From contig CAZHYH010000001.1 in NCBI GenBank assembly GCA_964536655.1, positions 1-27,459 of the forward strand: a stretch of 27,459 bases of DNA, written 5' to 3'. The notes beneath the pieces are model-generated. The model did not search any database. It saw nothing but the letters and a program-made list of their open reading frames with translations, and was not told the origin of the DNA. A program made the translations under genes and the position numbers. The DNA is from an uncultured Candidatus Saccharibacteria bacterium. GTDB lineage: Bacteria > Patescibacteriota > Minisyncoccia > UBA6257 > Colwellbacteraceae. Shown in pieces: positions 1 to 22,913 of the stretch (position 1 is its first letter; each line of letters begins with the position of its first letter).

Positions 1-61
1 TACTGTTGCCCTCCCATGAATTAATGTTTGATCCGGAAACATTAAGGGGCGGGACGTTATT

Positions 62-70
62 ATTATAACA
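62..70 (-). promoter_or_regulatory. Putative extended -10 promoter (TGTTATAAT) firing out of the left edge of the window
   Basis: The minus strand reads TGT-TATAAT, a consensus TGn + -10 hexamer, just downstream of a terminator-like hairpin. No good -35 is visible. Confidence 0.45.
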
Positions 71-95
71 AATCACAAAGATATATAAAACAAGT

Positions 96-127
96 AAAAA
101 GGACTCTAGAAACAGTTCTAGAGTCCT
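96..127 (-). terminator. Putative intrinsic terminator
   Basis: Perfect 12-bp stem AGGACTCTAGAA / TTCTAGAGTCCT (100-111 / 116-127) with a 4-nt loop, followed by a T run on the minus strand, 64 nt after the stop of ORF 192..440. Confidence 0.6.
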
Positions 128-191
128 GATAAATATGCCCCTTAATAAATGCGGGGCAAGCAGCGTCCTTTGTTTATGTTTAGTTAAACAC

Positions 192-440
192 TTAAGTATG
201 GTTGTAGATAACGTCTTCCGTACGAGGTATGAGCACCTTAGTCAGCTGCTCAAGCCGCTTAATCTGATGTGAACGTCTCTTTCCATTTCCTCCGCACTTG
301 ATTCTTTTCTCCAGTGAATTCCTTTCTTCCAGATAACATGCGAACCTGGAACATAACTCAGTGATTGATCCATCGTTGTCCGATTTCCTTACATTCTTGA
401 GCTGCTTGAGCTGCTGCACATTTCTGTCTTTTCTCAACAT
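192..440 (-). CDS. Hypothetical basic protein, 82 aa
   Basis: ATG start with a purine-rich SD-like AAGGAGAAGGAGGG at 453-466 and a downstream terminator. No recognisable motif. Confidence 0.45.
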   Translation of the reverse strand: MLRKDRNVQQLKQLKNVRKSDNDGSITELCSRFACYLEERNSLEKRIKCGGNGKRRSHQIKRLEQLTKVLIPRTEDVIYNHT

Positions 441-594
441 AATGTCTAAATACCCTCCTTCTCCTTAAGTTTTAGTGGTTTGGCGGACGCTGCTTTAAAA
501 GAACTACTAGGATAAACAATGTTATCCAGTTAGAGTTTAACACGTGAAACTGTTTGGGTAAATTCTTTAATCACTAAATAAATCGGAAACAGCG

Positions 595-1200
595 TTATTC
601 CAAGATGCCGTCTAAGTTAACGTCGTAAAGAATACTTTCGTTTATGAGGCGGTAGTTGAGCAGCTCTTCCGGATTAAACCAAAGAGCTATTTCTTTTTCG
701 GCTTCTTCAGGCGAACCGGAAGCATGAAGTAAATTTCTTACCGCTCTGCTATCTATATCAGCCATCTCGTAGGAATCAATTGTAAGGTCACCCCTTATAG
801 TGCCAACATCAGAAGTTAGTGGTTCGGTGCCGCCGGTAATCTTCCTTATAATTCCGACAGCATGTATGCCTTGCCAAACCATAGCAACAACCGGACCAGA
901 GACAAGATATTTCTTTAAGTTTCTCAATATAATCTCTGTAATCTGCAAGGGGTCTTCCGATGGCGGCATCTTACCCTTTTTCTTATAAGATTCGATGGTT
1001 TTGAGGCCTGTTTTTACACGCCACTCGGGATCGAGCGAATAGTGCTTTTCCACGAAGTCGGGTGATGGAACCAGCATTTTCAAACCTACCAGCTTCAAGC
1101 CGGTTCTTTCATAACGACCCAAAATCTCCCCTATCAAGCTGCGTTGAACACCATCCGGTTTTACGACAACCAAAGTTCTTTCTTTTTTTAAATCAGCCAT
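595..1200 (-). CDS. ndk: Nucleoside diphosphate kinase (long form with internal insertion)
   Basis: ERTLVVVKPDGVQR N-terminus, GTIRGD, and catalytic RNLLHASGS. Confidence 0.95.
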   Translation of the reverse strand: MADLKKERTLVVVKPDGVQRSLIGEILGRYERTGLKLVGLKMLVPSPDFVEKHYSLDPEWRVKTGLKTIESYKKKGKMPPSEDPLQITEIILRNLKKYLVSGPVVAMVWQGIHAVGIIRKITGGTEPLTSDVGTIRGDLTIDSYEMADIDSRAVRNLLHASGSPEEAEKEIALWFNPEELLNYRLINESILYDVNLDGILE

Positions 1201-2632
1201 TATCTTTTTGCGTCTTAGAGATTTCTATATGCAGCTCTTTTAATTGTTCATTAGAAACTTCCGAGGGAGCCCCCATAAGCAGGTCCCTCCCGTCTCCTGT
1301 CTTTGGGAAAGCGATGACCTCGCGAATGTTGGGTTCATTTTCTAGAATCATCATAAATCTGTCAATTCCCGGGGCAATTCCGCCGTGTGGCGGAACCCCG
1401 TATTCAAAAGCTGTCAACATGTGGTTAAACTGCTGTTTTTGTTCGTCTGAAAAACCGATTAAATCAAAAATTTTCCTCTGAACCTCCGGCTGATGAATTC
1501 TAATACTGCCACCCCCTATTTCATATCCATTCAAAACCAAATCATGTTGGAGCCCTCTTGCTTTTAATGGGTCGGCATCCAGAAAATGCAAATCGTCCGG
1601 ATGCGGCGCTGTAAACATGTGGTGCGAGGGAGCAAATTTGGCTGACCCGGAGCCATGAAAAAAATCTTCTTTTATCTGCTTGTTGAAAAGAGGAAAATCT
1701 ATCGTCCAGCTAAAGGCAAGCTCGTTGGGATTACCTTTGTCTTCTCTTAAATCCGGTTTGTCTGTTCCAAACTTCTTTCGCGCTTCGCTATGCGATAGAC
1801 GCGGCCATGGAGATTTGGAGATTATTTTGTGAGGAAATAATTCTTTCACCAAACTGGAAAACAACTCTTCAGTCAAATTTAAAATGTCTTCCTGCGTTAT
1901 AAAACTCATCTCTACGTCAAGCTGCGTGAATTCCGGCTGCCGATCACCTCTGGTGTCCTCATCGCGGAAACACCTGGCTATCTGGAAGTATCGTTCCAGC
2001 CCCCCAACCATAAGAAGTTGTTTGTACTGCTGCGGCGATTGCGGCAAAGCATAAAAATTGCCTGGATAAATCCTGGAAGGCACTAAATAATCCCTTGCCC
2101 CTTCCGGAGTAGATTTACCCAAATTCGGAGTTTCTACTTCTACAAATCCCCGTTCTGTCAGAAAATCACGCATGAACTTTATAACCTTGTGGCGATTTCT
2201 CAAGTTTTTAGTAAGGCGCCTGCGGCGCATATCAAGATAGCGATACTGCATTCTTAACTCTTCGCTTACTTCGTAGCCGTCCGTGTCCAAAGCGAAAGGC
2301 GGGGTTTTGGCTTTAGTGATAATTTCCAATTCGGTTACCTGAATTTCCAACTTACCCGTTTTCAAATTATCGTTAATCATGCCTTTAGGCCGCTCGCTCA
2401 CTTTCCCCTTAACTTTAATAACCCACTCTTGCCTCAAAGTATCAGCCAGTTTATACACCTCCGGATTTTCTTTTGGCACAAAAACTAGCTGGACAATGCC
2501 GCTTCTGTCTCTTAAATCAATAAAAATAATCTTGCCGTGATCGCGCCTTACGTCCACCCAACCGGCAAGTTCTATTTCCTCGTTCAACTTATCTAATATT
2601 TCTTCCGATAGAGTCCTCATATTCTTTAACAT
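1193..2632 (-). CDS. aspS: Aspartate--tRNA ligase, probably non-discriminating (Asp/Asn), lacking the GAD insertion domain
   Basis: OB-fold GWVDVRRDHG..IFIDLRDRSG, motif 2 YFQIARCFRDED, QLDVEMSF, motif 3 PPHGGIAPGIDR. The start is uncertain: the ORF track gives GTG 2650, but ATG 2632 or ATG 2620 is more likely. Confidence 0.96.
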   Translation of the reverse strand: MLKNMRTLSEEILDKLNEEIELAGWVDVRRDHGKIIFIDLRDRSGIVQLVFVPKENPEVYKLADTLRQEWVIKVKGKVSERPKGMINDNLKTGKLEIQVTELEIITKAKTPPFALDTDGYEVSEELRMQYRYLDMRRRRLTKNLRNRHKVIKFMRDFLTERGFVEVETPNLGKSTPEGARDYLVPSRIYPGNFYALPQSPQQYKQLLMVGGLERYFQIARCFRDEDTRGDRQPEFTQLDVEMSFITQEDILNLTEELFSSLVKELFPHKIISKSPWPRLSHSEARKKFGTDKPDLREDKGNPNELAFSWTIDFPLFNKQIKEDFFHGSGSAKFAPSHHMFTAPHPDDLHFLDADPLKARGLQHDLVLNGYEIGGGSIRIHQPEVQRKIFDLIGFSDEQKQQFNHMLTAFEYGVPPHGGIAPGIDRFMMILENEPNIREVIAFPKTGDGRDLLMGAPSEVSNEQLKELHIEISKTQKDNG

Positions 2633-3486: not shown

Positions 3487-4735
3487 ATCCCAGTAGAATT
3501 CCCGTTATCGACCCGGCTATAACTGATAGATGATATGATACAACACCTAAAAACATTGTCACGAATCCTAAAAACATAGTCAGCGGTATAAATTCAAGTA
3601 TAAGGACATTGGAAAATAAAGATAACGGCGAGAAGTAACCGAAAGTAGCAATCACAACAGGCAAAACAGCCATCTGCGCGGAAAAAGTCTGCAATAAATT
3701 TTCTCGCCAATTAAGAAAAGTTTCTTTTTTGGCGATGTTTAAGAGTTTCTCCAGGGCGGGTTTCAAATAAATCAGACCAATAAGCGCCATAAAAGAAAGT
3801 TGGAAACCGACATTGAAAATAAGCAGCTTGGGATTTAGAAGAAGCATCACGAAAGCCGTTAGAGTGACAGCGTTTCTGAAACTGTATAGGCGGCTTGATC
3901 GCTCGGCAACCAGAAAAACTATACCCATAATAGCCGCACGCACTACTGACTCTTCAGCGCCAGTCATTAAAACGAAAGCTACGACGAAAACAATACTAAA
4001 CCAAAATGCTTTACGCCTGCCACCAAAATAAGCAAACATATTAGAAAGAGCAATGGCTATTATGGAAACATTGTAACCGGATAAGGCTACCAAGTGCGTC
4101 GTACCGCTTTTCTTTAGTGCCTCGGTGAACTCCGGAGAAAATTCGCCTCGTTCGCCAAATAGAATTCCGGCAAGAAAGGCGGATTTTTCTCGGGGTAAAA
4201 CACGTTCTATGTTATTGATTAACGTCTGTTTTATAGAGAAAAGGAATTCTTTCGCGCGATTACCATGATTAACGCCCTCTAATTTTATTGTGGGAAAACT
4301 TACTATATTTGAGCGATTGGACGAAGATTTGCTGACTTCACCGGTAATTTCTAAGAGGTCTCCGTAATGATATTCCGGATAAAGAGCGGTATAAATTCTT
4401 ACTTCGCCGCTGTAAGGTTTGTTAAACCCCAAGACAATTTCTTGCGACTTCAAACCAAAAGCAGGCTCTTTAATAACAATTCCCGCAAAGGTAATTTCTT
4501 TATCAAAAACTATATGTTCTTCGTGGAGAACCAAATAGAAATTGTAATAAAAATAGCCCATAAAAAATAAAAAAAGAACAATAGTATACCAAAATACTGA
4601 TCGATGTTTTAGTATACTAAAAATAAGAATTGCGGCGATAGGCAAAGATAACCAGATGTTTATCCTCAAGCTGGCCGCGGCGATTCCTATGATAAAAAAA
4701 ACCGCTATATAAAAAGCGGCATCATATGCCTTCAT
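3443..4735 (-). CDS. comEC: ComEC/Rec2 competence channel (membrane domain)
   Basis: GTTHLVALSGYNV, SVVRAAIM and GFQLSF motifs with multiple TM segments. ATG 4735 (MKAY) is preferred over GTG 4747. Confidence 0.92.
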   Translation of the reverse strand: MKAYDAAFYIAVFFIIGIAAASLRINIWLSLPIAAILIFSILKHRSVFWYTIVLFLFFMGYFYYNFYLVLHEEHIVFDKEITFAGIVIKEPAFGLKSQEIVLGFNKPYSGEVRIYTALYPEYHYGDLLEITGEVSKSSSNRSNIVSFPTIKLEGVNHGNRAKEFLFSIKQTLINNIERVLPREKSAFLAGILFGERGEFSPEFTEALKKSGTTHLVALSGYNVSIIAIALSNMFAYFGGRRKAFWFSIVFVVAFVLMTGAEESVVRAAIMGIVFLVAERSSRLYSFRNAVTLTAFVMLLLNPKLLIFNVGFQLSFMALIGLIYLKPALEKLLNIAKKETFLNWRENLLQTFSAQMAVLPVVIATFGYFSPLSLFSNVLILEFIPLTMFLGFVTMFLGVVSYHLSVIAGSITGILLGYEIFIINLFGVYLS

Positions 4736-5279: not shown

Positions 5280-6380
5280 TTATTGTATCACCCCACCACC
5301 CAGCATCAATCCGTCTTGTGCATAAAATACTACTGATTGGCCGGAAGCTACAAATTTTTGAGGAGAATTAAAAGTAACTCTGTAATAATCGGTTTTTATT
5401 TTATCTATCGTCGCCAATATCAAGGGTTGACGATATCTGACTCGCGCTAAAACGAGAAGCGGTAATCGTGGTTCCTCTCCGGCTACCCAGTTTGCAGCAC
5501 ATATTTCGATTTCGTTTTTATACAAGAGCGGGCTATCACTGCCCAGAGCCACGGCTACCGTATTCGTAAATGTATTTTTACCGGTAACGTAATACGGGCG
5601 GCCGCCGCTCACGCCCAACCCGTGCCTCTGACCAACGGTATAAAACTGCGCGCCTTCGTGCTCCCCCAAAATCTTACCAGTATTATCAACAACAAAACCT
5701 TTGCGCGGCGGTAAGTGCTCGCCTAAGAATTCTTTCAAGGTAACCTTACCGACAAAACATAAACCTTGCGAATCTTTTTTCTCAGCTGTCGGCAGGCCAA
5801 CTTTTTTAGCTATAGCGCGGACTTCTGATTTCAAATAATCGCCTATCGGAAATAAGCAATGACGCAGTTGCTCCTGTGTTAAAGTCCACAAGAAATATGA
5901 CTGGTCCTTCTTGGTATCTTTAGCTCGCCAAAGACCAAATTTTGAATTTTTAATTTTTAATTTTGAATCAAATTCGAAATTCGAAATTCGAAATTCAGAA
6001 TTTCGTCGCAGACGGACATAGTGTCCTGTCGCTATATAGTCTGCTCCCATCTCTAAGGCTTTCTTAAGGAAAAGTCCAAACTTTATTTCTTTATTACACA
6101 TCACATCCGGGTTAGGAGTGAGGCCGGAGGCATACCCGCTAACCATATAATCCACGACTTTTTCTTTATATTCTTTCTCCAGGTCCAGAACGTAGAAAGG
6201 AACATTTAAAAGCTCCGCTACTCGGCGCGCGTCCTCGGCATCTTTTACGTTGCAGCTATTTTTGTTCCAGCAACGTAGATGAACACCAACGACGTCAAAA
6301 CCACGCTCCTTCAGTAGATAAGCAGCGACTGACGAATCAACACCGCCTGACATCGCCACAAAAACCTTAGATTTTTTCAT
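5280..6380 (-). CDS. mnmA: tRNA-specific 2-thiouridylase MnmA
   Basis: VAMSGGVDSSV, TPNPDVMCNKEIKF, IATGHY, KDQSYFL, KKDSQGLCF, YTVGQRHGLG and GQSVVFY. Confidence 0.97.
   Translation of the reverse strand: MKKSKVFVAMSGGVDSSVAAYLLKERGFDVVGVHLRCWNKNSCNVKDAEDARRVAELLNVPFYVLDLEKEYKEKVVDYMVSGYASGLTPNPDVMCNKEIKFGLFLKKALEMGADYIATGHYVRLRRNSEFRISNFEFDSKLKIKNSKFGLWRAKDTKKDQSYFLWTLTQEQLRHCLFPIGDYLKSEVRAIAKKVGLPTAEKKDSQGLCFVGKVTLKEFLGEHLPPRKGFVVDNTGKILGEHEGAQFYTVGQRHGLGVSGGRPYYVTGKNTFTNTVAVALGSDSPLLYKNEIEICAANWVAGEEPRLPLLVLARVRYRQPLILATIDKIKTDYYRVTFNSPQKFVASGQSVVFYAQDGLMLGGGVIQ
5937..6005. repeat. 69-bp heptamer-period low-complexity tract inside mnmA
   Basis: The minus strand reads (GAATTTC)-like units followed by (AAAATTA/C)-like units. 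It is in frame and encodes RNSEFRISNFEFDSKLKIKNSKF. Confidence 0.85.
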
Positions 6381-6493: not shown

Positions 6494-6883
6494 TTGCTCA
6501 ATAATATGGAAGAAGATAGTTATCAAGTCACTTTTGTTCCTAAAAGACTAAAGGTTGACGATAAGCCAGAATTCAACCATTTTCCCGTGAATATTCTTTT
6601 TGCCAGTATCAAGAAAAAAGATAATAAGCAAAAAGTTCGTTATTCTGTCTATCTGCCGGATCTTTCAACCTATACCGAAAATGATAAAAACCAAGGAATG
6701 GAGTACTACAATGTAATTGATAGAAATTATTGGCTCTGGATATCACGCAATAAAGAAAGTGGTTCTTATATAGGTTTTAAATATCGCGGTCCTCGTTGTA
6801 ATCCTGAAAGTCTCGGCTCTGCCACAGGGATAAATTACGAAGTATTCTTCAGATTTTTTACTGCTCTCGGGGTAAAGGAATAA
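6494..6883 (+). CDS. Hypothetical protein, 125-129 aa (only plus-strand gene)
   Basis: Open frame filling an otherwise empty gap and divergent from mnmA. The start is TTG 6494 or ATG 6506. No recognisable family. Confidence 0.6.
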   Translation: MLNNMEEDSYQVTFVPKRLKVDDKPEFNHFPVNILFASIKKKDNKQKVRYSVYLPDLSTYTENDKNQGMEYYNVIDRNYWLWISRNKESGSYIGFKYRGPRCNPESLGSATGINYEVFFRFFTALGVKE

Positions 6884-7063
6884 AAAAAACTGGGCAATAC
6901 TTTCATACTGCCGAGACTATATTTACACTTAAATTGTCCACTGATTATATATTTTTAAAGGTTCTAGAGGGTTTGAATGCTGGAGAATAAAATATATAAA
7001 AGCGCAAAGAAACTAAGTAGTGGTAAAAATTAAGGAGTTATTTAAGAGATCCAAATATGAGAA

Positions 7064-7286: not shown

Positions 7287-7856
7287 TTACGCTTTTTCGA
7301 CTCGTTCAACATAAGTTCCCATTTCTGTATTAACTCTAATAACATCGCCCACGTTGATAAATAAAGGCGCGTTCACTTTGGCACCGGATTCGATAATAAC
7401 GGCTTTATTACCGCCAGAGGCCGTGTCGCCCTTAATGGCAGGCGGCGCTTCCACAACTTTGTACTCCGCTTTAATAGGAAGCTTGGTACCGACAATCTCA
7501 CCACTAAAAGTGAGGGCGGTTAAAATCATATTTGGTTTAAGGTATGAAATCTGTCCCGCTAGCCTTTCCTCCTCAACTTTAAATCTTTTAGATGGGTCGT
7601 TAGGATAAACAAACCAATATTCTCCCCTATGCCCATAGAGATACCTCAAATTTTTCTTCTCTATTTCCGCTTCTTTAATAGAGTCGTTCTGGTGGAAAGT
7701 ACGATCTTGAACAGCGCCAGTTATCATATTCCTTATTTTAGTTTTAGAAACTGGCTTCCTTTGTTGCATACGCAGAAATTCGTACTCCAAAATTTCCCAC
7801 GGACGACCCTCGAGAATTACAAACGTTCCCGGTTTCAGTTCATTGTAGGATAGCAT
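7287..7856 (-). CDS. efp: Translation elongation factor P
   Basis: ELKPGTFVILEG N-terminus, YLKPNM, and the conserved C-terminus GDTASGGNKAVIIESGAKVNAPLFINVGDVIRVNT..G.YVER. Confidence 0.95.
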   Translation of the reverse strand: MLSYNELKPGTFVILEGRPWEILEYEFLRMQQRKPVSKTKIRNMITGAVQDRTFHQNDSIKEAEIEKKNLRYLYGHRGEYWFVYPNDPSKRFKVEEERLAGQISYLKPNMILTALTFSGEIVGTKLPIKAEYKVVEAPPAIKGDTASGGNKAVIIESGAKVNAPLFINVGDVIRVNTEMGTYVERVEKA

Positions 7857-7857
7857 A

Positions 7858-8004
7858 CCAGGTAGTAGAAACTCGACTTGTTAAATTCTTTTTGTTTTTG
7901 ACCTTTGAAGTTGATAGGATTTTCATAAATTATTTACTTATTTTGAGCCTGAAGTGAAACTTATTTAAAATTTAACAAAAAGTAGTCGAGTTTTCACTAC
8001 CTGG
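7858..8004. mobile_element. MITE-like element, copy 1 (147 bp; 21-bp TIRs; 4-bp flanking direct repeat CATA = TATG on the coding strand)
   Basis: Left end CCAGGTAGTAGAAACTCGACT (7858-7878) and right end AGTCGAGTTTTCACTACCTGG (7984-8004) are 19/21 complementary. CATA occurs at 7854-7857 and 8005-8008. Confidence 0.85.
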
Positions 8005-8009
8005 CATAG

Positions 8010-9443
8010 CTAAGATTGATCTTCTTCTTTATGTTCTTTCTTAATTGATTTAGATAAAACTTCTCGCAGTTCTTCTAAATTTACCGGTTTCCTTTCTTTC
8101 TTCGCAACTTCAAGTATTTCAAGCGGCTGCTCCGCGCGACGCTCGGATTTCTCCACTATTTCTTTTTTGCCGCCTTGCCACTCTTCCTCTATTTTTTTAT
8201 TGACTGTTTCTTTGGGTGTGCCATACCGCCTGCGATTGTTTTCAACGATAGCGTCTAAGGGCGTATCTTTGATTATTTCCCTTGGCGGCAAAGTTTCTGC
8301 GGAGAACGGCCGCGAAGCAATGCCGTCAATCATTAATTTAATGTAAATACTATGCTGTGACAAATTTACCAAATCGTTCGAGTTAAATTCAGGTAAAAAT
8401 TCTTTTTCTACAAACTCAGCATCTTCGGCGCCTATCCTAAAAGTAGCCATAGTGCCGACATTGCCAAAAATAGCAAACTTAACTTTTTCATCAAGCTGCT
8501 CAATATATTGATGAGCTAAAGTAAGGCTTAGCCTGTATTTTCTTGCTTCCGATAAAATATTGGCGAAGGATTCCGTAGAGAAATTCTGAAATTCGTCTAT
8601 ATAAAGAAAGAAATCGCGGCGCTCTGCTTCGGGAAGATTAACGCGGCTCATAGCTGCCAATTGGATTTTGGTAATAAGCATTGCGCCTAAAAGGGCGGAA
8701 TTATCTTCTCCGATTTTTCCTTTAGAAAGATTAGCGATAAAAATTTTTCCCTCATCCATCATTCTTCTTATATCTATTGTTGAATGCGGCTGGCCGATAA
8801 TATTACGTATCAAGGGGTTGGCAACGAACTGACCGACTTTATTTAAAATGGCGGCTGTAGCCTCGGCTTCAAGCCTTTGAGTATAACGGGCAAATTCGTT
8901 AATCCAAAAACTCTTGATAACCGGATCAGCTAAACGCTCCACCACCTCACGCCGATAGTCTCTCTCGGTTAAAAGTCTCATTATACCCAGAAGCGTAGAA
9001 CCTGGGAACTCAAGAAGTGAAAGTAAAGAATTGTTTAAAATATATTCCATCCTAGCTGACCAAACATCCGGCCAAATTTTTTTGAATATTCCCATGAGAC
9101 CCGAAGCCACAATGTGATGATACTCGTCACCAACTTTCTCAAGCGGATTGAAACCTATGGGATAGTCAATATCAGCCGGGTTAAAGTAAATAACATCGTC
9201 AATCCTATTTTCTGGAATAAAATGAAGAATCTTTTCGGCAAAATCCCCATGCGGATCAACAAGTCCGATGCCGCGACCGGCTAAAATATCATCAATTACC
9301 ATATTTTCCATCATAGTTGTCTTACCGCTCCCAGTTTTACCGATAATATAAATATGGCGCCTACGATCGTCGGTCTTGATTCCGAATTTGGCTTGCCCAT
9401 TCCTAAAATTTGTTCGCCCTAATGGCGTAATTATTTCTTCCAT
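8010..9443 (-). CDS. VirD4/TraG/HerA-like P-loop ATPase (type IV secretion coupling-protein-like, DUF87-type)
   Basis: RRRHIYIIGKTGSGKT Walker A, LVDPHGD, FFLYIDEFQNF Walker B, SEARKYRLSLTLAHQY, IFGNVGT and FRIGAEDA. Confidence 0.9.
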   Translation of the reverse strand: MEEIITPLGRTNFRNGQAKFGIKTDDRRRHIYIIGKTGSGKTTMMENMVIDDILAGRGIGLVDPHGDFAEKILHFIPENRIDDVIYFNPADIDYPIGFNPLEKVGDEYHHIVASGLMGIFKKIWPDVWSARMEYILNNSLLSLLEFPGSTLLGIMRLLTERDYRREVVERLADPVIKSFWINEFARYTQRLEAEATAAILNKVGQFVANPLIRNIIGQPHSTIDIRRMMDEGKIFIANLSKGKIGEDNSALLGAMLITKIQLAAMSRVNLPEAERRDFFLYIDEFQNFSTESFANILSEARKYRLSLTLAHQYIEQLDEKVKFAIFGNVGTMATFRIGAEDAEFVEKEFLPEFNSNDLVNLSQHSIYIKLMIDGIASRPFSAETLPPREIIKDTPLDAIVENNRRRYGTPKETVNKKIEEEWQGGKKEIVEKSERRAEQPLEILEVAKKERKPVNLEELREVLSKSIKKEHKEEDQS

Positions 9444-13885: not shown

Positions 13886-14968
13886 TTACTCTTCTTTAAT
13901 CAGTTTTTCAAGTTCTTCGAGCAACTTCTTGGCTTTGGCGCCAATGTTTTTAGGAATTTTAATATCAAGTTTGACAACTAGATCGTTTTGTGGAGTCATC
14001 CCTTCACCTTTGATTCTTATTTCCTCATTTAAATTGTGTTGAGACGGAATCGTAATCTCTACTTTACCATCGCCTAAGGCGTGAACCTTAATTTTTCTGC
14101 CCAAAAGAACATCTATAATATCCGCCGCAACTGTAGTATAAAGATCATTGCCCTTTCTCTCAAATTTCGCGTGAGGTAAAATTCTAACCCGTACATAGAG
14201 ATCTCCGGATTCTGCCTGTCTTGCCCCCGCTTCACCAATGCCCTTTATTTTGATAATCTGGCCGTCATCTACGCCCGGTCTTATCTCAAGAACAGCATTT
14301 CTTGTGCCCGAGACGCGTCCTTCTCCCTTGCAGGCGGCACAAATCTTATTCGGTATCTGGCCGAAGCCGCTGCAATGTTTGCAAGCGACTACCTGGACAA
14401 AGTTACCGAAGAAAGTATTTCTTGATTCTCTTATTTCTCCTCTGCCGCCGCAATATTCGCACTTCTTAAGACCGGCTACATGGTCGTATCCTAATCCGCG
14501 GCAAACGTTACAAATAAGATGCGTTTGATATTCCAGGTTAACTCTTTTCCCTGATTTTGCTTCTTCTAAAGTAACCGTCACGCTTATTTCTAAATCCGAA
14601 CCACGCTTGTAAGTTTTACGCTTTGGTTTAACTCCCAGCCCTTCAAAAAAAGCATCGAATACTTCGCCCAAATCAGAGGTATCCCCGAAGCCGCCAAGGT
14701 TAATATCCCAGTTAAACCCTTCTGGGTTCACTCCGCTCCAGGCGCCGTAATTCGAGCCGTCGCTAAACACTTTGCCGAAACGATCGTACTCCGCCCGCTT
14801 TTTAGCATCAGAGAGCACTTGATAAGCTTCGTTTATTTCCTTAAATTTCTTCTCATCGCCGCCTTGCTTATCAGGATGATATTTATGCGCTAAACGCCTA
14901 TAAGCCTTCTTAATTTCTTCGGTAGAAGCGTTGCGGAGAACTTCTAAGATTTTGTAATAGTCATTCAT
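13886..14968 (-). CDS. dnaJ: Chaperone DnaJ
   Basis: J domain with HPD, G/F-rich linker, four CxxCxGxG repeats and C-terminal GDLYVRV. Confidence 0.97.
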
Positions 14969-14969
14969 T

Positions 14970-15105
14970 CCAGGTAGTAGAAACTCGACTAATTATATTG
15001 GTAATTTTGACCTTTAAGTTTTCCATTATTTATAGGTAAATTCATTTATAACTATTTGATTATTTTATTCGCCTTTGGCGAACGAGTCGAGTTTTCACTA
15101 CCTGG
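14970..15105. mobile_element. MITE-like element, copy 2 (136 bp; same 21-bp TIRs; 4-bp flanking direct repeat CATT = AATG on the coding strand)
   Basis: CCAGGTAGTAGAAACTCGACT (14970-14990) and AGTCGAGTTTTCACTACCTGG (15085-15105) are identical to the ends of copy 1. CATT occurs at 14966-14969 and 15106-15109. Confidence 0.85.
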
Positions 15106-15109
15106 CATT

Positions 15110-16072
15110 TTATTTTAATATAATTACCTCTCTGCTACGAGATTCAAGTTGAACCACGGCAAAATTAAACGCCAATAATATTTCATATACAATAAAAGCT
15201 AACAAAGCAATGGGCGCATGAATAAACGGAATAAAACTTCTAACCAGTGAATAAATTAATATTAAAGAAACGCTCCAGAGAAAAACTTTCGAAGAAGGCG
15301 TAAGATCGATGTATTTAAAACGTAAAGTATCATAGATGTTAGCAGATATCGGTTTCCCCAAATCTATCTTGCTGCCAATAATATCCTCCACTTTCTCCGT
15401 CAGCTGATCTACGGACTTAGTAATTAGCTGATTTTGCGCCCAGAGAGGCAGTTTATTTAAATCTTGTACCTCTTTATCGCCTAAGTTCGAAACTACAATA
15501 TTATTTAATAATTCGCGCATAGGCACGGAGGGAGAAAAAGTTGGGTAATATCTCATAACCAGCGGTGTAAGCGGTCTTAAAAGGATATTTACTCCCTCTT
15601 CGCTAAATAAGCCGCCTTTCATAACAAACATAACTATGATAAAAAGCACGAGAGCGGGCGCGACGAGATTTAAAGACAAACGCGAAACCCTGAAAAAGCG
15701 AATTTTCATAGTGGCTTCCAGTTCTTTACGGCTGTCAAAAGAAGCTTTAAATAAAAGAACTGTAAGAACGAAAACAGCTATAACAAAAAGCCCTGAAAAA
15801 TTTTGGTAAAAGGGTAAAGCGAAAGCTATTGATTCTAAAAGAATCGCAAAAAAAAGTTTATCAAAGCCCTTAATAAAAAGATTTTGCAGGATAAAAATAA
15901 CTAGAAATATAATTGTGAAAACGGCGCCATATATCAACTTGCCTTCCTCAAGAAAGTAACCGGCTAAACCCGCAAAGAGTACGGCAGCAAAAATGACAAT
16001 AGAAATTTTAAGAATAGACCTGTCTACATCAGCCACATCGGAAGCGCTCTGTAGAAGAGAATTATTGTCCAT
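15110..16072 (-). CDS. Hypothetical multi-pass membrane protein
   Basis: 320 aa with about five N-terminal and two C-terminal hydrophobic segments around a soluble domain. It overlaps the dnaK stop. Confidence 0.75.
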   Translation of the reverse strand: MDNNSLLQSASDVADVDRSILKISIVIFAAVLFAGLAGYFLEEGKLIYGAVFTIIFLVIFILQNLFIKGFDKLFFAILLESIAFALPFYQNFSGLFVIAVFVLTVLLFKASFDSRKELEATMKIRFFRVSRLSLNLVAPALVLFIIVMFVMKGGLFSEEGVNILLRPLTPLVMRYYPTFSPSVPMRELLNNIVVSNLGDKEVQDLNKLPLWAQNQLITKSVDQLTEKVEDIIGSKIDLGKPISANIYDTLRFKYIDLTPSSKVFLWSVSLILIYSLVRSFIPFIHAPIALLAFIVYEILLAFNFAVVQLESRSREVIILK

Positions 16073-22163: not shown

Positions 22164-22493
22164 TTAATTTACTGATGAAATCAAGTAAACAGAAATGAAG
22201 GTAAGGATGACTATTATCAGCGAAGTGCCGGAGAAAATATAAGATAAAATCCTCTCGCGATTATAAAGATGATAAGCTAATATGAAATTTATAAGCACAA
22301 TAATTCCGGCAATCGTTATGATGTTAAAAATATTTCCATTCCCACCTATAACATCCACCTCACCTTTATAATTGAAGTGAATAATAAACGGGCCTTCTAC
22401 GCCGTACAAAGTCGTATAGGTCATGACACCGGAAACTATCAACAGCGTCAAACTTAAGCCGAAAAGACTGATAATAAGTAAATTTCTAATCAT
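22164..22493 (-). CDS. Small three-TM membrane protein, DUF1648-like
   Basis: Three hydrophobic segments; loop motif IIHFNYKGEVD resembles the P.HF...G..D loop of DUF1648 proteins. Confidence 0.6.
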   Translation of the reverse strand: MIRNLLIISLFGLSLTLLIVSGVMTYTTLYGVEGPFIIHFNYKGEVDVIGGNGNIFNIITIAGIIVLINFILAYHLYNRERILSYIFSGTSLIIVILTFISVYLISSVN

Positions 22494-22567
22494 GGTAGCC
22501 CCAAGGGGAATCGAACCCCTGTTCCCGCCTTGAGAAGGCGGTGTCCTAGCCGCTAGACGATGGGGCC
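22493..22567 (-). tRNA. tRNA-Glu (anticodon CTC) with encoded CCA
   Basis: GGCCCCA/TGGGGCT acceptor, anticodon arm CCGCC-TTCTCAA-GGCGG, T arm AGGGG-TTCGATT-CCCCT, and ACCA end; 75 nt. Confidence 0.95.
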
Positions 22568-22801
22568 TCTCCTACGCTCCGATTACCATCGGAGCTTCGG
22601 AAGAGCAAGTAGTGGTAATTAACAGTTTACTTGTCCTTCCGAAGCTCAAATGTTCATTTGAGCGAAGGAGGAGACGATGGGGCCTCTCCTACGCTCCGAT
22701 TACCATCGGAGCTTCGGAAGAGCAAGTAGTGGTAATTAACAGTTTACTTGTCCTTCCGAAGCTCAAATGTTCATTTGAGCGAAGGAGGAGACGATGGGGC
22801 C
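22555..22801. repeat. Tandem repeat: two identical 117-bp units plus a third 13-bp copy of the tRNA-Glu 5' end
   Basis: AGACGATGGGGCC occurs at 22555, 22672 and 22789. The identical 104-bp interiors (22568-22671 and 22685-22788) each contain three hairpins. Confidence 0.92.
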
Positions 22802-22822
22802 ATAACGCTCGCTTCGCTCGCT

Positions 22823-22913
22823 AAAATCAAAATTTAAATCTCAAAAATCAAAATTACAATAATCTAAAAAGTTTGTATTGTCATTTTTAACTTTGATATT
22901 TACATTTTACACT
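22823..22913. repeat. Inverted pair of degenerate heptamer-repeat arms
   Basis: A-rich units aaaatca/aaattta/aatctca/aaaatca/aaattac (22823-22857) face T-rich units tgtcatt/tttaact/ttgatat/ttacatt/ttacact (22879-22913). Confidence 0.6.

Follow-up and report, generated by a model that had tools for sequence, protein, structure and literature searches.

A 104-nt hairpin-rich unit at the 5′ end of a CPR tRNA-Glu gene belongs to a family of structured cassettes found after tRNA nucleotide 13

Elements that move by tyrosine integrases replace the 3′ portion of a tRNA gene or sublocations in its anticodon loop or T-loop, and accretion arrays separated by att cores are known. To our knowledge, the known integrases replace the 3′ part of the tRNA rather than the 5′ part, and mobile DNA has been little described in the tiny, streamlined genomes of CPR/Patescibacteria. 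The casposase of A. boonei needs a duplicated segment of 15 bp and the adjacent 18 bp of the tRNA T-loop, a target design that makes repeated integration at the same site possible in principle (PMC5137440). Among smaller inserts, miniature inverted-repeat elements (MITEs) usually generate duplications of 2-10 bp (PMC11602168), and RNase III cleaves the RNA of one such family, Correia (PMC2229807). Rickettsia palindromic elements (RPE) and fungal mitochondrial double-hairpin elements are inserted in protein genes and structural RNA genes (tmRNA, RNase P RNA), with no obvious duplication (PMC2229807). Here, we describe a 104-nt unit, labelled E, at the 5′ end of a tRNA-Glu gene. The main result is the existence of an E family and its precise targeting to nucleotide 13 of tRNA genes.

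The window, which is the whole 27,459-nt stretch of DNA that was analysed, is of CPR type (~41% GC), with genes that lie nearly all on the minus strand, in the order mraZ-rsmH-ftsL-ftsI-murF-repeat-tRNA-Glu-109-aa membrane protein-rplU-cysS-dnaB-recR. Its MurF shares 99% identity with a protein of Parcubacteria group bacterium CG1_02_42_13. The 3′ CCA of the tRNA-Glu gene shares one base with the ATG of the downstream membrane-protein ORF (22491-22495), and in the relatives L034 and L037 only 1-16 nt separate the murF stop codon from tRNA-Glu +1. The tRNA is thus embedded in an operon, and must be excised from a polycistronic transcript. The features of the locus are as follows.

22493..22567, minus strand: intact tRNA-Glu(CTC), found with ARAGORN and with Infernal and the Rfam tRNA model (61.4 bits)
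22555..22567, minus strand: proximal 13-mer GGCCCCATCGTCT, the functional tRNA nt 1-13
22568..22671, minus strand: E unit 1, 104 nt, tRNA-proximal (Tandem Repeats Finder; covariance-model match of 111 bits)
22671-22664, minus strand: unit 1, 5′ strand of closing stem P0 (consensus structure)
22663-22644, minus strand: unit 1, hairpin H1 (consensus structure)
22643-22596, minus strand: unit 1, hairpin H2 (consensus structure)
22595-22576, minus strand: unit 1, hairpin H3 (consensus structure)
22575-22568, minus strand: unit 1, 3′ strand of P0 (consensus structure)
22672..22684, minus strand: middle copy of the 13-mer (tRNA nt 1-13)
22685..22788, minus strand: E unit 2, 104 nt, distal, 100% identical to unit 1 (Tandem Repeats Finder, covariance model)
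22789..22801, minus strand: distal copy of the 13-mer, a non-functional 5′ tRNA fragment
22802..22913, minus strand: AT-rich spacer from the murF stop codon to the distal 13-mer; lineage-specific, 1-70 nt long in relatives

An earlier, sequence-only reading of this DNA had described a tandem 104-bp unit, each copy of which regenerates the first 13 nt of the tRNA. This description was confirmed by Tandem Repeats Finder (22555-22801; period 117, 2.1 copies, 100% matches), by an exact count of the 13-mer, and by ARAGORN and Infernal. Read towards the tRNA, positions 22555-22801 consist of a 13-mer, 104 nt, a second 13-mer, 104 identical nt, and a third 13-mer that runs on into tRNA-Glu(CTC). The 13-mer GGCCCCATCGTCT occurs exactly three times, all on the minus strand (22555-67, 22672-84, and 22789-801), compared with 0.02 occurrences expected by chance. 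In the Infernal alignment it comprises the 5′ strand of the acceptor stem (nt 1-7), nt 8-9, and the 5′ strand of the D-stem (nt 10-13). Since the bases beyond the repeat differ at both ends, its length is exactly 13 nt, and since the alignment places its end at the 5′ strand of the D-stem, the E junction falls exactly between nt 13 and A14. The termini of E (CCTCCTTCGCTC ... GAGCGTAGGAGG) are inverted repeats with 11/12 complementary positions, kept in all members of the family described below. As had also been claimed, the unit has essentially no coding capacity: no ORF within one unit exceeds 32 aa, and a 70-aa ORF on the plus strand runs across the units only because they are in tandem. When Rfam was searched at gathering and permissive thresholds, tRNA alone reached threshold, the best non-tRNA match being a plant miRNA model (26 bits against a gathering score of 96). 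No promoter-like site was found inside the 104-nt unit. The AT-rich spacer carries a sigma-70-like site (22884 to 22856), a match to the consensus only, which could drive the units together with the tRNA. With a candidate promoter at this upstream position, the tRNA would be made with a leader that holds both units and would be trimmed by RNase P.

For the unit of the window alone, minimum-free-energy folding prefers one long imperfect hairpin (z-scores of -8.8 and -6.3). RNAalifold analysis of six family members gave a four-way junction without unpaired junction bases, in which 89.7% of the alignment cells are paired. The closing stem P0 is formed by CCTCCTTC/GTAGGAGG with a conserved T.T mismatch, H1 and H3 have the forms GCTC-x-GAGC and GCTC-y-GAGC, respectively, and H2 is TTCGGAAGG...CCTTCCGAA. 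Nine pairs showed compensatory changes, compared with 4.5 ± 1.3 in shuffled alignments (0/500 as high), and controls in which the structure was slid gave lower values. The interiors of H1 and H3 are entirely different between members, yet self-complementary. A change at the base of H1 in one copy from the viral contig L047 (L047a), from GCTC/GAGC to GCTG/CAGC, keeps the cloverleaf and breaks the long-hairpin alternative. The three hairpins and closing stem proposed in the sequence-only reading are therefore real, with the six-member alignment and its covariation behind the four-helix form. Neither the counts of G.U versus A.C nor sense and antisense folding energies (7 versus 8 members) revealed a strand preference, so that the structure could act in RNA, in single-stranded DNA, or as a cruciform.

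A scan of a genome collection with the central stem detected E in three other CPR metagenome-assembled genomes (MAGs; L021, L023, and L026). A metagenome scan with the two termini added a tRNA-Glu(TTC) context (L031/33), more copies at tRNA-Arg, and three copies away from tRNA 5′ ends. Three further loci from the genome scan (L022, L024, and L025) were rejected as unrelated hairpins that have the central stem alone in common with E; L025, from a Spartobacteria MAG, carries an unrelated array at 7296-7480, with repeated units that contain GCTTCGGAAGCTC and GAGCCTNTTTCATAG. Covariance model R1, run over the 27-kb window and 27 loci, revealed no further diverged copies. In the genome scan, each genome had one locus with the exact pattern; several copies were seen only in the viral contig L047, which has four.

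In 5/5 independent tRNA contexts, the arrangement is tRNA nt 1-13, then E, then tRNA nt 1-13 continued by nt 14-76, with the junction at 13/14 and E in the tRNA-sense orientation. The 13-mer matches the adjoining gene's own tRNA at 13/13 positions in tRNA-Glu(CTC), both in the window and in L026, and in tRNA-Arg(CCG) (L023/28/29/49), and at 12/13 positions in tRNA-Asn(GTT) (L021) and tRNA-Glu(TTC) (L031/33). At tRNA sites the 13-mers are spaced 112-117 nt apart. The duplication begins exactly at tRNA +1 in 4/5 contexts, and the E-to-tRNA junction varies by 0-2 nt (GGAG, GGAGA, GGAGGA, GGAGGAT). The tRNA-linked members are 72-84% identical to each other, and the L023 member joins an L021-like H1 to a window-like H3. 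The sequence-only reading had, beforehand, made its interpretation depend on finding related units at other tRNAs or in relatives; these were found at tRNA-Asn, tRNA-Arg, and tRNA-Glu(TTC), and in relatives, and the family copies support its picture of a gene-less, hairpin-forming, non-autonomous unit tied to the tRNA 5′ end. Pairing of the E loops, in the manner of guides, was no better to the cognate tRNA than to non-cognate tRNAs.

At the tRNA-Arg locus L023, the right half of an L021-type E, followed by the first 5 nt of the tRNA, lies upstream of the intact E. The truncated unit gave an alignment score of 41, compared with a null maximum of 23. Two different E subtypes in series indicate two separate insertions, with the intact E adjoining the tRNA. 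Amplification as proposed earlier, whether the unit inserted repeatedly or the 13-mers recombined with each other, is plausible. In contrast to L023, the upstream sequences of the window and L026 held no significant older, degraded units. Between the truncated older E and the distal 13-mer of L023 (5436-5475; also in L028, L029, and L049) lies a 33-nt piece with two 7-bp hairpins that have TTA loops (CCCGCGC-TTA-GCGCGGG and GCCGAGC-TTA-GCTCGGC) and GCCCC on either side; it may be another tiny insertion with a 5-bp duplication. A search for the empty tRNA-Arg site by way of GH1 homologues was uninformative, as synteny was gone at 66% identity. On the 3′ side of the occupied tRNA-Asn, L021 (2284-5760) encodes a type I restriction R subunit and an HTH-ATPase-DUF4325 protein, which looks like a small defence island.

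Presence of E at the tRNA-Glu(CTC) locus is polymorphic. The syntenic murF-tRNA-Glu(CTC) loci L034, L035/36, and L037-39, with MurF proteins that are 73-78% identical, carry no E, and the murF stop codon lies 1-70 nt from the tRNA. Because these orthologous loci are empty, E and its additional 13-mers represent a derived insertion. In L035 (3791-3860) and L036 (2318-2387), a 9-nt microsatellite, (AAGCTAWCA)n, occupies the murF-tRNA-Glu spacer. In L026, E is present at the same tRNA-Glu, also in tandem, although its second unit enters a 100-N scaffold gap. The E units of the window and L026 are identical at 101/104 positions (97%), compared with nucleotide identities of 64% for murF and 65% for cysS, and 60% for the MurF protein. 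The 13-mers are lineage-specific, the window and L026 differing in the GGCCCC and GGCCTC variants, and each genome carries the variant of its own tRNA; the GGCCTC tRNA is unoccupied in L037-39. Near-identical E units beside host-own 13-mers point to recent spread to the same target in separate lineages, and the host-own variant argues that the duplication was copied from the recipient.

The number of units at this locus was compared among contigs that encode exactly the 109-aa protein of the window together with MurF (20 loci from JGI, NCBI, ENA, and Logan assemblies). In the other assemblies of the same Parcubacteria species, 15/15 region-spanning loci had a single unit, and their murF-to-ORF gap was 303 nt, compared with 420 nt in the window. 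The tandem read from the window is present there, with 100% matches in Tandem Repeats Finder, but it is not the species norm (one unit in at least 15 assemblies): unit 2 is missing in other assemblies of the species, and the two-unit state rests on one assembly. Five short contigs end in or at the unit, one of them exactly past the distal 13-mer and three in the H2 loop. The fifth contig reads past this stop point in H2 and has a variant loop, TTAATCG, as in L026. The pattern of contig breaks is consistent with variation in the sequence and number of units within the population, and the tandem of the window is a strain-level or assembly-level variant of a normally one-unit locus. At the end of contig L018 (1942-2010), a strain variant of the window E, with CAGATG and loop TTAATCG, follows the upstream flank known from the window; that this loop is the version found in the distant species L026 hints at a possible exchange of E variants between species.

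An alternative is that the genome really has one unit, the second being an artefact of assembly or one way of resolving a mixed population. This would agree with the 15/15 complete one-unit loci from other assemblies of the organism and with the several short contigs that break within or at the edge of the unit. We nevertheless consider it unlikely. The junction ...GGAGA-GGCCCCATCGTCT-CCTCC... arises only where two units are adjacent, and k-mer assembly of a one-unit genome would be unable to yield the tandem because this unit-13-mer-unit junction would not exist in it. The 13-bp repeat is below the usual assembly k-mers, and a one-unit genome would offer no repeat long enough. In addition, the tandem also occurs in the independent assembly of another species, and breaks at the 13-mer edge fit heterogeneity in copy number.

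E also occurs away from tRNA 5′ ends, in settings that the earlier interpretation had not foreseen. No flanking duplication was found at 3/3 other cellular E sites or around the viral copies. In L030, E replaces a 16S rRNA helix: in the alignment to the Rfam SSU model, P0 takes the place of the helix at positions 177-200, and 83 nt are additional. This 16S rRNA gene (1-1277, minus strand) carries E in a V2-region helix and a further insertion, ~185 nt long, in the V1 region, at the helix of model position ~83. Another copy lies at the 3′ end of queH, six profile positions short of the end, and a third lies 68 nt upstream of tRNA-Ala in a GC-rich organism. The full-length end pattern gave 0 matches in viral contigs; relaxed half-patterns identified shorter and longer versions of E in GC-rich viral contigs. 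L047, a GC-rich, podovirus-like contig with tail genes that resemble those of 40-44-kb phages, carries four E-like cassettes in 8 kb (3794-3884, 4519-4599, 6065-6163, and 6834-6927). At least 3/4 of these copies lie directly 5′ of a start codon: GTAGGAGG, the 3′ end of E, touches the ATG and is paired with the 5′-end CCTCC. In at least three copies the stop codon of the upstream gene lies one base before E. At the RNA level, the two ends of E thus correspond to an anti-SD-like and an SD-like sequence that pair with each other. L044 has an orthologous copy ahead of the same gene. A blastn search of an annotated phage collection with the window E and the L047 E gave no matches. All copies with the GTAG asymmetry (12/12) are co-oriented with host transcription. 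Judging from its placement, the L047 cassette may have a role in intercistronic processing or translational coupling, and E as a processing or coupling hairpin appears likely for the phage copies and possible at the tRNA of the window. The earlier interpretation thus held in part; it had not anticipated duplication-free copies in a 16S rRNA gene, at a gene 3′ end, and between phage genes.

Comparison with described systems places E between several of them. Casposons and CRISPR spacer integration share with E a long, fixed duplication (15 bp in A. boonei, 13 bp for E), an adjacent tRNA segment that is recognised, and a target that survives. What would be expected of a casposon-type target is found in E: a 13-nt duplication that ends at 13/14 in 5/5 contexts, tandems in the window and L026, and serial insertion in L023. 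However, a casposon is a large element with genes for Cas1 and PolB that targets the tRNA 3′ end and T-loop, whereas E is a gene-less unit of 104 nt at the 5′ end and D-arm, and no Cas1-family casposase or PolB was found in the examined flanks. MITEs such as Correia/NEMIS, RUP, and ERIC resemble E in being small, non-coding, bounded by terminal inverted repeats, and co-transcribed with their neighbours, and E duplicates its target at tRNA sites. In contrast to MITEs, which are multicopy and have a cognate IS, E has about one detectable locus per genome rather than multiple dispersed copies, makes its 13-bp duplication only at tRNAs, and has internal hairpins that are preserved by covariation.

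RPE and the fungal mitochondrial double-hairpin elements are likewise palindromic inserts, of ~100-150 nt, but these families are genus-restricted and multicopy, whereas the termini of E are near-invariant across CPR, GC-rich bacteria, and viral contigs, and E has a tRNA-specific mode with duplication. Intervening sequences of rRNA and intergenic RNase III hairpins of phages correspond to the E copy that extends a hairpin in place of a 16S helix tip and to the copies at cistron boundaries. Unlike E, rRNA intervening sequences are not known to occur beside a duplicated tRNA fragment at the 5′ end of a tRNA gene, and cleavage of E is a prediction. Integrative elements that target tRNAs with tyrosine integrases, including CIMEs, have flanking direct repeats that are part of the tRNA, as E does, and restore the tRNA; however, they carry an integrase and share an element-borne core, whereas E uses the 5′ 13 nt and a host-specific repeat, with no integrase in the flanks. 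E behaves like a MITE- or RPE-type palindromic insert, with casposon-like target logic and positions typical of intervening sequences.

The REP-like nature that the sequence-only reading had assigned to the unit did not hold, as size, copy number, and anatomy do not match: E is ~57-112 nt long with four helices and low copy number, compared with the 20-40-nt, high-copy REP/BIME palindromes headed by GTAG/CGTC, and its GTAG lies in the 3′ terminus rather than at the head of a simple hairpin. The suggested derivation from a nuclease-bearing parent also found no backing, since no nuclease, transposase, or integrase gene was seen beside E copies in the examined flanks. Several further classes were set aside as not matching in anatomy: CRISPR arrays, TIGR arrays, retrons, integron attC sites, IS200/IS605 ends, and self-cleaving ribozyme units. 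The "spacers" are identical, the examined flanks hold no Cas gene, reverse transcriptase, or integrase, a GTT-type core is missing, and Rfam gave no ribozyme match. Literature searches by topic and by conserved motif strings retrieved no description of the E family.

On balance, we lean towards E being a non-autonomous, mobile, structured cassette, mobilised by a trans-acting enzyme that duplicates a 13-bp tRNA target, with tandems formed by re-insertion or by recombination between 13-mers. E would integrate into CPR tRNA genes just after nt 13, always in the tRNA sense, and integration would duplicate nt 1-13 of the recipient gene's own tRNA. The downstream copy, with nt 14-76, would form the working tRNA, and the upstream copy would be left as a dead fragment that subsequently decays. 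We infer a trans-acting integrase or transposase that would make 13-bp-staggered cuts and read its target from the tRNA body; the target, being intact after insertion, could be hit again on the tRNA side to give arrays. The tandem of the window might reflect such a second hit, or unequal recombination or slippage between the 13-bp repeats. At the boundary between the murF and tRNA cistrons, the E transcript would probably be removed by RNase P, possibly with RNase III. The constant 13/14 junction, host-specific duplication, fixed orientation, and arrays would all be expected from a staggered-cut integrase that reads an adjacent tRNA segment. No transposase, integrase, or reverse transcriptase was found in the flanks of L021, L023, and L031. 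Against a simple transposase are the junction that varies by 0-2 nt, which seems atypical of DDE transposons, and the low copy number, which is unlike that of a typical MITE. Since the non-tRNA copies have no flanking duplication, a single transposase-type mechanism does not cover the whole family.

The start of the duplication at exactly tRNA +1 would be more naturally explained by a process at the RNA level, in which E RNA becomes linked to tRNA RNA at two points, the mature 5′ end that RNase P creates and a position past nt 13 in the D-arm; a DNA copy of the product would then enter the gene by recombination. The duplication would then reflect RNA ends rather than staggered DNA cuts. The +1 start in 4/5 contexts, the 0-2-nt fuzziness of the E-to-tRNA junction, the co-orientation of the 12/12 GTAG-asymmetric copies with host transcription, and the copy within a 16S rRNA helix would all suit such a route. 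We know of no bacterial pathway for it, however, no reverse transcriptase was seen near E copies in the examined flanks, and stability does not differ between the sense and antisense folds (7 versus 8 members), with G.U versus A.C counts that do not favour the sense strand; RNA-mediated insertion is considered very improbable. A selected RNA module, rather than selfish DNA, has a better though still modest claim: E would be a processing hairpin for RNase III or RNase P, or a translational coupler that sequesters the SD sequence, with the tRNA-linked copies as one use and the duplication as an incidental by-product. This is consistent with the L047 copies between a stop codon and the next ATG, where GTAGGAGG abuts the ATG and pairs with CCTCC, with the 16S copy, in which E substitutes for a helix where intervening sequences are typically found, with the position of the window E between murF and an operon-embedded tRNA, and with Correia/NEMIS repeats being RNase III substrates (PMC2229807). 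It leaves the arrival of E and the duplication of tRNA nt 1-13 unexplained, close relatives do without E, no Rfam family matches, and the structure has no strand bias. E could instead be the scar of site-specific recombination, a minimal cis-mobilisable remnant whose attP core is tRNA nt 1-13; the 13-mers would be attL and attR, and the tandem would have formed by accretion at the att site, as for CIMEs next to ICEs. Direct repeats identical to part of a tRNA are the signature of tRNA-targeting integrases, and tandems occur in both the window and L026. Yet every tRNA (Glu, Asn, Arg) has its own 13-mer, although E itself remains 72-84% identical; each E copy would thus need its own attP core, and an att-core model fits poorly. 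The visible 13-mers of the window and L026 are all of the host's own variant, and no integrase gene lies nearby in the examined flanks, which makes a recombination scar improbable.

If the cassette is mobilised in trans, as we prefer, a more speculative and rather unlikely extension is that CPR possess a ruler-type integration system, casposase/Cas1-like or wholly new, that would read the tRNA body, cut at -1/+1 and 13/14, and insert a 104-nt four-way-junction cassette with duplication of nt 1-13, building polar, CRISPR-like arrays; different phyla and podovirus-like phages would have this cassette family in common, and in the phages it would serve intercistronic processing or coupling. We give a minority chance to the integration system of E being new. 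A family that inserts precisely at the 5′ D-arm junction and leaves essential, single-copy tRNA genes functional would represent a mode of targeting not reported before, and the 13-bp host-derived duplication and array formation provide a testable link to integration chemistry of the casposon/CRISPR type. Termini that hardly vary between CPR, GC-rich bacteria, a 16S rRNA gene, and phage sites suggest a widely shared structured cassette that RNA and repeat libraries may have missed. E-type units also break assemblies, and can corrupt the annotation of tRNAs, rRNAs, and small ORFs.

A second element is shared by two 5′-UTRs on the minus strand of the window (7852-8010 and 14964-15112), which belong to efp (7287-7856) and dnaJ (13886-14968), respectively. 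In both, ATGCCAGGTAGTGAAAACTCGACT pairs with AGTCGAGTTTCTACTACCTGG just 5′ of the start codon, enclosing ~100 AT-rich nt, and the folds have z-scores of -3.8 and -7.6. The pair may represent a common regulatory hairpin, or a further small mobile element. Immediately upstream of the efp 5′-UTR element (8010-9443, minus strand), the window encodes a 477-aa protein with coupling-protein domains of the TrwB/TraG/VirD4 type.
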